Part shown: one piece after another, positions 42,561 through 43,327 of the stretch
How the letters are laid out: the number at the start of each line of letters is the position of its first letter
How positions within the stretch are numbered: the stretch's first letter is position 1
DNA from: a phage
Assembly (NCBI GenBank): GCA_015370545.1
Contig: GCA_015370545.1_3932.1
Reading direction: 5' to 3' (one strand)
Length of the DNA stretch: 64,000 nucleotides
The notes under the pieces: model-generated
What the model saw: the letters and a program-made list of their open reading frames with translations, nothing else
Databases searched by the model: none
Told to the model about the DNA's origin: nothing
Position numbers and translations under genes: made by a program

Positions 42561-42674
42561 ATTTTAGGAGAACACTATGAGTAATAAATCAATTGCAAAA
42601 AAGTTTATAGCGTCATTCAAAAACAGGCGTAAAAACAACTCTTGTGAAAAACTGTATGGTGTTCTTGTAGGTAA

Positions 42675-42750
42675 GCAGGATTAGTTCAAATGGATAGAGC
42701 AACAGTCTACGAAGCTGTTAATAGGGGTTCGAATCCCTTATCCTGCGCCA
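42675..42750 (+). tRNA. tRNA-Arg (anticodon ACG)
   Basis: acceptor GCAGGAT/ATCCTGC; D-arm TAGTTCAAATGGATAGAGC; loop CTACGAA. Confidence 0.7.
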
Positions 42751-42769
42751 ATTTAAAGAGGCTATTTAA

Positions 42770-43327
42770 ATGAGATACTTGAAGTATGCTTCATGGATTT
42801 TCTTAGCTTTGCTAGAGCCATTGGCAGCAATCTTAGCAGTTATCTTAGCACCTTTTGTAGTTCCATTTTACAGTGAGAAGAAAGGACACTTACCTTTTGG
42901 ATTCAGATGGATGGAGACATATGACAACCCGATTGATGGTGATGAAGGTCACGTTAAAAGATGGGCTAAGATTAGAAAGATTGGTAAGCTTGGTGTCTAT
43001 TTGCAGAGAGTTGGATGGCTCTGGAGAAACAAAGCTTATAACTTCTCTTACCATGTGTTAGGAAGAGATGTAAAAGATGTTACTAAGTGGAAAGGTAATA
43101 TCAACGTAAGTTCTGACCCTGAAGATAATCAGACAGGTTATCTCCTAATGTGGAACAGTAATGCTTGGGGATTATTCGCTTTTATCCCATCAATTAAAGT
43201 CTTTGGTAAACAATTCTACTGGAGAATTTATGTTGGATGGAAGCTAAAAAGTGTTGTCCCAGAAGAAAGAGCATTCTCAAGGGAAAGAGTTATGTTGGCA
43301 TTCTTTATTCATCCACTGAGAAAGTAA
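42770..43327 (+). CDS. membrane protein encoded inside the tRNA array
   Basis: 185 aa; N-terminal hydrophobic helix; SD AGAGG upstream. Confidence 0.5.
   Translation: MRYLKYASWIFLALLEPLAAILAVILAPFVVPFYSEKKGHLPFGFRWMETYDNPIDGDEGHVKRWAKIRKIGKLGVYLQRVGWLWRNKAYNFSYHVLGRDVKDVTKWKGNINVSSDPEDNQTGYLLMWNSNAWGLFAFIPSIKVFGKQFYWRIYVGWKLKSVVPEERAFSRERVMLAFFIHPLRK

Follow-up and report, generated by a model that had tools for sequence, protein, structure and literature searches.

Protein genes interleaved with phage tRNA genes have been described in T4 (segB) and in Felix O1 (the HNH genes ORF44, ORF45 and ORF47), and homing of T4 SegB within the tRNA cluster is established (PMC2330249). Two further reports (PMC4122927 and PMC2993671) describe hyperplastic regions in T4-like genomes. 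A similar interleaving was found in the window analyzed here, a 64,000-nt stretch of DNA from a Felixounavirus (Felix O1-type phage) with 97-98% identity to known E. coli phages. HNH endonuclease genes fill gaps of the tRNA array in Felix O1 and P54; the array of the window contains no endonuclease gene and carries three other ORFs of 35, 185 and 244 aa. Overall, these are probably unrelated accessory protein genes that have lodged in an early-transcribed, recombination-prone and plastic tRNA array, and not parts of a tRNA-related machine.

The tRNA array and its two larger protein genes

39265-39385, + strand: two sigma-70-like promoter matches just 5′ of the first tRNA gene (consensus matches only)
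39412-44688, + strand: tRNA array, 26 tRNA genes with interspersed ORFs and gaps (ARAGORN; Rfam tRNA matches)
42675-42750, + strand: tRNA-Arg(acg) (ARAGORN; Rfam)
42770-43327, + strand: DUF7338 gene (Felix O1 ORF48, Bas63 gene 153), 185 aa
43336-43411, + strand: tRNA-Gln(ttg), starting 8 nt past the DUF7338 stop codon (ARAGORN)
43779-44513, + strand: DUF7217 gene (Felix O1 ORF49, Bas63 gene 159), 244 aa (Pfam)
44726-44785, + strand: intrinsic terminator ending the tRNA/ORF transcription unit, made up of a long hairpin and a U6 run behind it (fold z-score −6.0)

All 26 tRNA genes of the array were placed on the + strand by ARAGORN, and tRNA was the only Rfam family detected above threshold in the array. 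Co-transcription of the ORFs with the tRNAs, as proposed in the preliminary description, agrees with this layout: the ORFs lie on the same strand, gaps to the flanking tRNAs are only 2-19 nt for both larger ORFs, promoter-like sites lie upstream, and the strong terminator is found directly 3′ of the last tRNA, with a second hairpin and T-run at 44851-44874. We infer that promoters upstream of the array drive a common transcript of the tRNAs and the three genes, which ends at 44726-44785, and that the mRNAs of the genes are released when host RNase P (at the 5′ end) and 3′ trimming nucleases excise the flanking tRNAs. In Felix O1, transcripts of ORFs 45, 46, 48 and 49, all within the array, peak 5 min post-infection. 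A Ro60-like RNA-binding protein, the Bas63 homolog of which counters the ppl defence, is encoded directly upstream of the array.

Each of the three ORFs matches an established family, in keeping with its earlier designation as protein-coding. None is new, as all are annotated in Felixounavirus genomes and have existing Pfam or PHROG families; with annotation in Felix O1 dating from 2010, the present analysis matters little for the genes themselves.

The 185-aa ORF was found exactly where it had been placed (42770-43327), with its own Shine-Dalgarno sequence (SD; AAGAGG, 8 nt upstream of the ATG) and the previously noted N-terminal hydrophobic helix (hydrophobic segment at approximately residues 6-36; helix 2-33 in the AF2 model). 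It matched Pfam DUF7338 (PF24027) with 210 bits (E 2.8e-62; gathering threshold 27 bits), residues 1-184 covering model positions 1-176 of 180. The predicted product (21.9 kDa, pI 9.9) combines a single N-terminal membrane helix, flanked by balanced charges, with a Trp-rich alpha/beta C-terminal domain of net charge +12. The DUF7338 core motifs (T-x-D-N...G-D, W-L-W-R-N and R-x-Y-x-G-W-K-L-K) are all present, and T50, D52, G57, W83, W85, R86, N87, R152, G156, W157 and K158 were invariant in an alignment of 27 sequences with identities down to 32%. Across relatives, dN/dS was 0.03-0.09, which indicates that the gene is under strong purifying selection. Felix O1 ORF48 (phrog_2143) has 96% protein identity and occupies the same slot between tRNA-Arg and tRNA-Gln; nothing differs materially and the two are the same gene, described by Whichard et al. 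as a “conserved hypothetical; membrane protein” with 60.9% identity to an RB43 protein (RB43ORF080w). The family comprises ~891 clusters at 50% identity, of which the 150 best-scoring ones listed are nearly all stand-alone proteins of 165-200 aa. A whole-library profile search yielded no informative fusions; the sole “fusion” was a half-length chimera, from a 1.1-kb contig, that carries the C-terminal domain of a tail fibre. The remote homology search suggested in the preliminary description did not lead beyond the family, as only family members were returned by a BFVD viral fold search. PDB sequence searches with the DUF7338 and DUF7217 proteins found nothing, DUF7338 had no meaningful match in NCBIfam or PADLOC, and literature searches on the DUF and PHROG names gave no results.

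The 244-aa ORF also stands at its original position (43779-44513) and is indeed Ser/Thr-rich (Ser+Thr 19.7%). A longer 265-aa version from a GTG start at 43716 was rejected: this start lies inside tRNA-Phe and is unsupported, and the Pfam match does not begin until residue 29 of the longer version, corresponding to residue 8 of the protein that starts with the ATG at 43779. The ORF matched Pfam DUF7217 (PF23854) with 294 bits (E 1.1e-87; model positions 2-238 of 238; threshold 29 bits), and a dN/dS of 0.07-0.15 across relatives points to purifying selection. Its product is predicted to be acidic and all-helical (25.6 kDa), with an all-alpha AF2 model of moderate confidence (pLDDT 64) whose fold matches outside the family were generic long helices. 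Felix O1 ORF49 (phrog_2114) is a full-length match (95-99% identity within the genus) and holds the same position, with ORF51 and the terminase gene immediately downstream. DUF7217 is conserved across the Ounavirinae and has homologs in Ackermannviridae, where it lies in a tRNA-free region (one locus scanned, phage heyday); in Kolesnikvirus and Hafnia phage Zyzzx it is placed after the last tRNA. In Felixounavirus it is followed by two tRNAs (Ser-gct and Cys), and the gene therefore appears embedded.

A distant homolog, ORF129 of Dickeya phage LIMEstone1 (26% identity along the full length), is a virion protein by mass spectrometry (2 peptides, 18% coverage) and is preceded by a putative late promoter. 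DUF7217 is not among the chains modelled in the cryo-EM structures of Bas63 or Sf14 virions, for which the portal served as control, and gp49 is not in the Felix O1 shotgun proteome list. A 51-kDa Felix O1 virion band has been published as gp49, in conflict with the 25.6 kDa predicted for that protein; it is probably gp63 that was mislabelled. Early transcription in Felix O1 also fits poorly with a structural role. DUF7217 may be best described as a conserved helical protein at the boundary of the packaging module, probably a minor virion or assembly protein.

The 35-aa gene and its optional cassette

42483-42560, + strand: tRNA-Leu(caa), upstream edge of the variable slot (ARAGORN)
42566-42674, + strand: 109-nt insertion cassette with the 35-aa ORF, present or absent among close relatives
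42568-42666, + strand: predicted closing stem, 42568-42579 pairing with 42655-42666
42577-42684, + strand: gene for a 35-aa basic small protein (phrog_13848), its last 10 nt with the stop codon inside tRNA-Arg

The existence of the smallest ORF was upheld, while its coordinates had to be shifted by 1 nt to 42577-42684. Its other reported properties were recovered: a strong SD (AGGAG at 42566-42570, 6 nt before the ATG), a basic product (predicted pI 10.2) and a 10-nt overlap with tRNA-Arg(acg), within which the TAG stop (42682-42684) is located.

The slot between tRNA-Leu and tRNA-Arg is highly variable. It is empty in 12 of 24 close Felixounavirus loci, where the two tRNAs are 5-6 nt apart and the sequence reads ...CCAATTTT/GCAGG..., and contains the 35-aa ORF in seven. 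A different ORF, which runs for 53 codons and then reads on into tRNA-Arg, occupies the slot in two loci and in Moogle, and both tRNA-Arg(acg) and the cassette are missing from Bas63 and three other loci. Empty, filled and deleted alleles all use the CCA-ATTTT junction that follows tRNA-Leu(caa), and slot breakpoints fall at CCA-ATTT junctions. The next slot, between tRNA-Arg and DUF7338, is either empty or, in 10 loci, filled with an 80-aa ORF. A transposon-like origin of the 109-nt cassette was considered and rejected, since no target-site duplication is present and an RNA stem accounts equally well for the complementarity of its ends.

Only 34 phage records carry the cassette, and the dN/dS of its ORF ranges from 0.29 to 1.2 on very few sites, as might be expected if the 109-nt insert were a structured spacer RNA or a decaying remnant and its frame incidental and not a functional gene. 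The ORF is frameshifted at A-runs in SPJ41 and NBEco005, but remains intact in 9 of the 11 aligned carriers, and the AGGAG at optimal spacing is invariant in all 11. In the predicted stem, the GAG that ends the SD would be buried along with the start codon, and cleavage by RNase P would strip the mRNA of its stop codon, which falls within tRNA-Arg; both features also suit an incidental frame. However, the insert has no Rfam match, and although pairing is kept at all four variable positions of the stem, there are no double compensatory changes and the fold z-score is weak (−2.55). An analogous stem of different sequence is predicted for the alternative cassette.

Further evidence for a functional gene is provided by ORF100 of Krischvirus Phi1 (phi1p100), a basic 41-aa homolog with 56% identity and a common C-terminal KLYGVLVGK motif, which lies in an ordinary operon between vs.8 and vs.6 and abuts the vs.8 coding region. 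The phrog_13848 profile matched both proteins (E 7.3e-18 for the 35-aa ORF and 1e-30 for ORF100), so that membership of the 35-aa ORF is backed by a profile match as well as by a homolog in an independent genomic context. Matches to the 41-aa protein were found by tblastn in 36 further records, those listed being Escherichia phages of ~164-171 kb. While the Phi1 copy has its own C-terminus and stop, the window copy has been cut down to 35 aa and stops within a tRNA gene, on a cassette that is optional. A non-functional frame appears unlikely, and the ORF is a member of a small basic-protein family that also occurs in T4-like phages, carried on an optional 109-nt cassette.

DUF7338 beside tRNA genes

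From co-transcription, the preliminary description had proposed functional coupling of the ORFs to the tRNAs, and named as counter-evidence their absence from relatives that retain the flanking tRNAs. Such absence was found for two of the three ORFs, as Moogle, Erwinia phage M7 and 12 of 24 Felixounavirus loci keep the flanking tRNAs but lack the 35-aa ORF and/or DUF7338. Moogle retains Leu(caa)-Arg(acg)-Gln(ttg), with no DUF7338 found in the 83.5 of 88 kb examined, and at the M7 locus, which lacks both the small ORF and DUF7338, Leu(aag)-Arg(acg)-Gln(ctg) are contiguous with only 6 and 2 nt between them. The third ORF, DUF7217, has its Ackermannviridae homolog away from tRNAs at the heyday locus. 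On these genome comparisons, functional coupling of the three ORFs is not supported and the DUF7338 gene is accessory.

The distribution of DUF7338 nevertheless leaves a residual point that favours some link. Among homologs with at least 56% identity, 44 of 45 loci lie no more than 1.1 kb downstream of a tRNA, in three phage lineages (Ounavirinae, Vequintavirinae (Av-05) and several Straboviridae genera) and in different tRNA slots, such as that between Asp and Ser in Hafnia phage Zyzzx. This exceeds what simple chance lodging predicts and counts against a passenger explanation. DUF7338, perhaps with the small protein, could instead work with the phage tRNAs, its position in tRNA clusters reflecting selected co-expression; it might, for example, be a membrane-anchored factor that protects or exploits phage tRNAs against tRNA-targeting host defences or toxins. 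One report (PMC13096335) presents the T-even tRNA region as an anti-defence locus, and the Ro60-like gene directly 5′ of the array, with its ppl-countering Bas63 homolog, would fit such a role. Three metagenomic homologs (34% identity) are also located 17-267 nt downstream of tRNAs, yet 32 of 35 distant members examined have no tRNA within ~4 kb (3 of 35 are tRNA-adjacent), and the annotation of Yersinia phage phiR1-37 shows a terminator on either side of the gene and no tRNA in its vicinity. The same tRNAs occur without DUF7338 in Mooglevirus and Kolesnikvirus. In the protein itself, RNA-binding or nuclease features could not be recognised, and PADLOC gave no match. The T4-like cases may represent a single inherited arrangement; RB43 and KP27 proteins are ~60% identical, with the gene directly upstream of vs.6 in both. 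A tRNA partner is considered improbable, and we would attribute the recurrence in three lineages to the plasticity of recombination-prone tRNA regions.

Still less probable is a mobile “tRNA plus accessory gene” anti-defence package exchanged among Ounavirinae, Vequintavirinae and T4-like phages, with DUF7338 as its membrane-anchored partner and the small ORFs that read into a tRNA as a processing-coupled switch; here, synthesis of the peptide would be confined to precursor RNA before processing, with the stop removed by RNase P and the ribosome-binding site hidden by the stem.

Records of P54, GEC_vB_NS7, Citrobacter HP1 and UPEC01 label DUF7338 a “holin”, probably due to its resemblance to the class III T4 holin T, which likewise has one N-terminal membrane helix followed by a ~150-aa domain, although no sequence or fold relationship was detected and DUF7338, unlike T, is dispensable within its subfamily and expressed early. 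With its single N-terminal helix, DUF7338 has the one or more transmembrane domains used as a holin criterion for small phage proteins, and Felix O1 has no lysis cassette; but a holin required for lysis should be kept or replaced lineage-wide, whereas DUF7338 is missing from the M7 locus, from the 83.5 of 88 kb examined in Moogle (where another gene, of 124 aa and located behind the tail fibre, is the curated putative holin), and apparently from most Erwinia Ounavirinae records (Erwinia is not in the top organism list for DUF7338, compared to 33 records for DUF7217). T4-like phages carry their own T holin, which coexists there with DUF7338. The 5-min transcript peak of Felix O1 ORF48 contrasts with programmed late holin action, and gp48 is not among the holin candidates of Whichard et al. 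A class III holin is very improbable; the label is unsupported and should not be propagated.

Returning to unrelated accessory genes as the preferred explanation, DUF7338 would be a single-pass inner-membrane protein that is dispensable for the phage lineage and exchanged among enterobacterial phages, and it may have an early role at the cell envelope of the infected host, such as exclusion or modulation of the host or its defences. Its recurrent tRNA neighbourhood offers a cheap testable lead, as Bas63 knockout libraries exist; the text of the PhageMaP preprint on Bas63 does not give values for genes 153 and 159.

Comparison with other plastic phage loci

Recombination at CCA-(A)ATT(T/A), a conserved short junction found behind most of the tRNAs, would add and remove cassettes of the array, probably with the help of homing endonucleases encoded in relatives' arrays. 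For these phages, which are widely used in biocontrol and diagnostics, the array constitutes a cassette-swapping region, with optional small genes that differ between otherwise nearly identical isolates. It resembles the hyperplastic regions of T4-like phages, as described in PMC4122927, in that contents vary among close relatives and that short repeats or endonucleases drive recombination. The junction motif of the window, CCA-(A)ATT(T/A), differs from the promoter-stem-loop motifs of T4-like phages named in the title of that report. Unlike segB and the HNH genes, none of the three ORFs interleaved with the tRNA genes of the window encodes an endonuclease.

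Three catalogued genes in a Felixounavirus tRNA array

Sequence searches with a 2.3-kb stretch around the three ORFs returned 292 matching phage records in all, with 97-98% identity to Escherichia phages DE17, KEP1 and TH10 and 95.5% identity to Salmonella phage Felix O1, which places the window in a Felixounavirus genome (subfamily Ounavirinae). Four GenBank records with implausible taxonomy or host labels, PV390658 (P54, filed as Tequatrovirus), GU169904 (Staphylococcus phage SA1), MG065664 (Campylobacter phage A132) and OK283618 (Listeria phage LPML1), also contain Felix O1-like or related Ounavirinae sequence and are likely mislabelled or contaminated. 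A Ro60-like protein gene precedes the array, and genes for the large terminase and the portal follow it.

Features in and around the tRNA array of the window
37831-39246, + strand, Ro60/TROVE-like RNA-binding protein gene (471 aa; DUF2828 and DUF7788, phrog_850), directly upstream of the tRNA array
39412-44688, + strand, array of 26 tRNA genes, all on this strand (ARAGORN)
39581-39600, 39748-39767, 40229-40248 and 40316-40335, + strand, copies of the 20-nt motif CAGAAGACCNNTTACAGCAA, mostly just past tRNA 3' ends
40332-40396 (24.7 bits) and 41464-41538 (23 bits), + strand, sub-threshold tRNA-like matches in larger array gaps
44726-44785, long hairpin with a U6 run behind it, immediately past the last tRNA (z -6.0)

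The preliminary description had placed three ORFs inside this array, and its account of them was correct except for a 1-nt shift in the position of the smallest. The 185-aa ORF (42770-43327) starts 19 nt past tRNA-Arg(acg), ends 8 nt ahead of tRNA-Gln(ttg) and has its own Shine-Dalgarno sequence (AAGAGG, 8 nt before ATG); its product carries the proposed hydrophobic helix as one strongly hydrophobic N-terminal segment and belongs, over its full length, to Pfam DUF7338 (E 3e-62) and phrog_2143. Likewise Ser/Thr-rich as described (Ser+Thr, 19.7%), the 244-aa product of 43779-44513 falls over its full length into Pfam DUF7217 (E 1e-87) and phrog_2114 and is encoded from 16 nt past tRNA-Phe to 2 nt ahead of tRNA-Ser(gct). 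The 35-aa ORF occupies 42577-42684 behind an AGGAG located 6 nt ahead of ATG, encodes a basic peptide (pI 10.2) matching phrog_13848 (E 7e-18), and overlaps the 5' end of tRNA-Arg (start 42675) by its final 10 nt, which contain the TAG stop. Counterparts of the two larger genes are ORF48 (DUF7338; annotated "conserved hypothetical; membrane protein") and ORF49 (DUF7217) in Felix O1 and genes 153 and 159, respectively, in Bas63. All three genes are real and already catalogued, and the finding itself is ordinary.

Relative to the window copy, dN/dS at 21-23 orthologous loci was 0.03-0.09 for DUF7338 and 0.07-0.15 for DUF7217; both proteins are clearly under purifying selection. Within the genus alone, coding status is less clear-cut for the 35-aa ORF (dN/dS 0.29-1.2 from only five distinct sequences), whose frame is broken in two records by single-base indels in A-runs. 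Using tblastn, homologs were found in 36 further records, the matches listed being ~164-171-kb Escherichia phages, among them Krischvirus Phi1 and JSE. In Phi1 the homolog is annotated as a gene of 41 aa, which lies between vs.8 and vs.6 and abuts the vs.8 coding end; given its 56% identity to the window peptide, the common C-terminal KLYGVLVGK motif and its match to phrog_13848 (E 1e-30), the 35-aa ORF is taken to belong to a genuine family of small proteins.

Other elements were noted in the array. All four copies of CAGAAGACCNNTTACAGCAA lie on the + strand within its first kilobase, where none would be expected by chance; the motif may be a processing or regulatory signal. The two tRNA-like matches probably represent tRNA-like elements or tRNA genes in decay. 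Weak tmRNA-like Rfam matches at 40846-41242 (+) scored far under the gathering score, and ARAGORN found no tmRNA in the window; an ARAGORN 'ssrA' was reported for Felix O1 and Citrobacter phage Moogle in earlier genome announcements. Bas63 gp130, a homolog of the Ro60-like protein, has been reported to counter the ppl defence system, with the authors speculating that some 'tRNAs' may be Y-RNA-like (PMC11482910); no Y RNA was found in the array using Rfam.

Variable slots and the proposed coupling to tRNAs

The gaps on either side of tRNA-Arg were compared across 24 Felixounavirus loci, with Bas63 and Moogle taken separately. The small-ORF segment fills the gap between tRNA-Leu(caa) and tRNA-Arg(acg) in 7/24 loci, while the two tRNAs are only 5-6 nt apart in 12, segment and tRNA-Arg are both missing in three (and in Bas63), and two loci, as well as Moogle, have another ORF preceded by the same ribosome-binding site. 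This alternative ORF, Cys-rich in its N-terminal part and with a basic tail, runs for 53 codons, then continues into tRNA-Arg and reaches its stop ~50 nt inside it. Only 34 records in the whole phage collection contain the small-ORF segment, compared with about 215 for DUF7338 at ≥90% identity. The window has nothing in the second slot, that between tRNA-Arg and DUF7338, which holds an 80-aa ORF in 10 loci, its variants differing by synonymous to non-synonymous changes of 21:38.

ORFs occupying the two slots in relatives (coordinates of each locus)
3727-3905 in loci L025 and L029, and 5310-5522 in Moogle (L089), alternative ORF of the Leu-Arg slot (phrog_10765)
4370-4612 in locus L002, and in nine other loci, 80-aa ORF (phrog_14202) overlapping the DUF7338 start codon (ATGA)

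The insert in the window is exactly 109 nt (42566-42674), flanked by ...CCAATTTT and GCAGG, with no target-site duplication. In alleles lacking tRNA-Arg, the CCA-ATTT junction after tRNA-Leu is joined to the identical junction after tRNA-Arg, and insertion and deletion alleles of relatives break exactly at such junctions. As (A)ATT(T/A) directly follows 17 of the 26 tRNA genes, short repeats are available for cassette exchanges, and the breakpoints suggest that these were microhomology-mediated. HNH endonuclease genes occupy other array gaps in Felix O1 and P54, and inheritance of a phage tRNA region through a homing endonuclease is established for T4 SegB (PMC2330249).

It had been proposed that co-transcription couples the ORFs functionally to the tRNAs. 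Co-transcription is reasonable: with only 2-19 nt between ORFs and tRNAs, we infer that the ORFs lie on the tRNA precursor; sigma-70-like sites were found just upstream of the first tRNA, and no convincing + strand terminator was identified between these and the hairpin at 44726-44785. ORF mRNAs would then be released when flanking tRNAs are excised. RNase P cleavage at the tRNA-Arg 5' end would remove the small ORF's last two codons and stop, so that only uncleaved precursor could yield the full peptide. A stem predicted between 42568-42579 and 42655-42666 would cover this ORF's start codon and the 3' part of its ribosome-binding site; pairing is kept at 4/4 variable positions, with no double compensatory change and a z of only -2.55, and the alternative cassette has an analogous predicted closing stem of different sequence.

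Functional coupling is unsupported and seems quite improbable, as both the small ORF and DUF7338 are absent from relatives that keep the flanking tRNAs, the outcome that the preliminary description had itself named as a refutation. The 12 loci with the short gap retain Leu(caa)-Arg(acg) without the small ORF. In Moogle, Arg(acg) and Gln(ttg) are 7 nt apart with no DUF7338 gene, which tblastn and profile searches did not find in 83.5 of 88 kb, and in Erwinia phage M7 Leu(aag)-Arg(acg)-Gln(ctg) are contiguous (gaps of 6 and 2 nt). Conservation of DUF7217 extends throughout Ounavirinae, but with the gene bordering the packaging module: it comes after the last tRNA in M7 and Hafnia phage Zyzzx, and in the one Ackermannviridae locus scanned, that of phage heyday, its homolog has no tRNA within 5 kb.

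Protein features and functional labels

In the AlphaFold2 model of DUF7338, which is confident (pLDDT 94), residues 2-33 form a long N-terminal helix alongside a five-stranded sheet and several short helices. Many conserved positions are Trp, Gly or basic; the membrane helix is flanked by balanced charges, and the C-terminal domain has a net charge of +12. The family contains about 891 clusters at 50% identity, the 150 best-scoring of which are nearly all stand-alone proteins of 165-200 aa. One 172-aa protein (P0032) from a 1.1-kb metagenomic contig joins the DUF7338 N-terminal half to a Gp53-like tail-fibre C-terminal domain and is either a recombinant or an assembly chimera.

In Felix O1, ORF48 and ORF49 were both detected by RT-PCR and, together with ORF45 and ORF46, which are likewise array-internal, are listed among genes with maximal expression 5 min after infection. 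The holin label given to DUF7338 in some records was rejected on the basis of this early transcription, the absence of the gene from the M7 locus and from the 83.5 of 88 kb searched in Moogle, and the fact that T4-like carriers possess their own holin T. In Moogle the curated putative holin is another gene, of 124 aa, located after the tail fibre.

For DUF7217, predicted by AlphaFold2 to be all-helical with long helices (moderate confidence), a role in the virion was considered. Its full-length homolog LIMEstone1 ORF129 (26% identity, E 1e-26) was detected in purified virions by two peptides, and a putative late promoter precedes that gene. The Felix O1 paper text also assigns a 51-kDa virion gel band to 'gp49' (PMC3185647). 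As ORF49 is predicted at 244 aa and 25.6 kDa, and the shotgun proteome lists gp63 (48.9 kDa) and not gp49 (PMC3185647), this is probably a mislabel or numbering error that has contributed to the expectation of a 'structural protein' for ORF49. The Bas63 and Sf14 virion structures, both of which the window portal matches, include no modelled chain of DUF7217; on thin evidence, it is possibly a minor, disordered or internal virion protein. The BFVD entry O80222 covers 150 aa of Felix O1 ORF49; an older UniProt entry calls this fragment 'Red protein'.

DUF7338 and tRNA regions of other phages

One pattern, the association of DUF7338 with tRNAs, speaks in favour of coupling; it was assessed at 80 loci from viral contigs, 45 with at least 56% identity to the window protein and 35 more distant. 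Within the closer set, 44/45 have a tRNA gene no more than 1.1 kb upstream; tRNA-adjacent copies occur in Felixounavirus, in the Ounavirinae phage Zyzzx, where the slot differs (between tRNA-Asp and tRNA-Ser), and in the Vequintavirinae phage Av-05. T4-like phages belong to the closer set as well: in some (RB43, KP27) genomes of 170-180 kb contain just one to three tRNAs, and others have 18-19. Against coupling, no tRNA was found within about 4 kb of 32/35 more distant homologs, and in Yersinia phage phiR1-37 the gene sits between annotated terminators with no tRNA annotated nearby. Three metagenomic homologs (34% identity) are directly downstream of tRNAs, whose species match the T4-like cases (Arg-tct, Gly-tcc, Met), so ancestry may be common.

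The adjacency, one modest lead from an otherwise ordinary finding, probably mirrors gene movement rather than protein function: phages with enterobacterial hosts in common would exchange DUF7338 by recombination in their plastic regions that contain tRNAs. Finally, the position just upstream of vs.6 is held by DUF7338 in RB43 and KP27 and by the small-protein homolog in Phi1, a placement of both that is consistent with exchange with T4-like phages.
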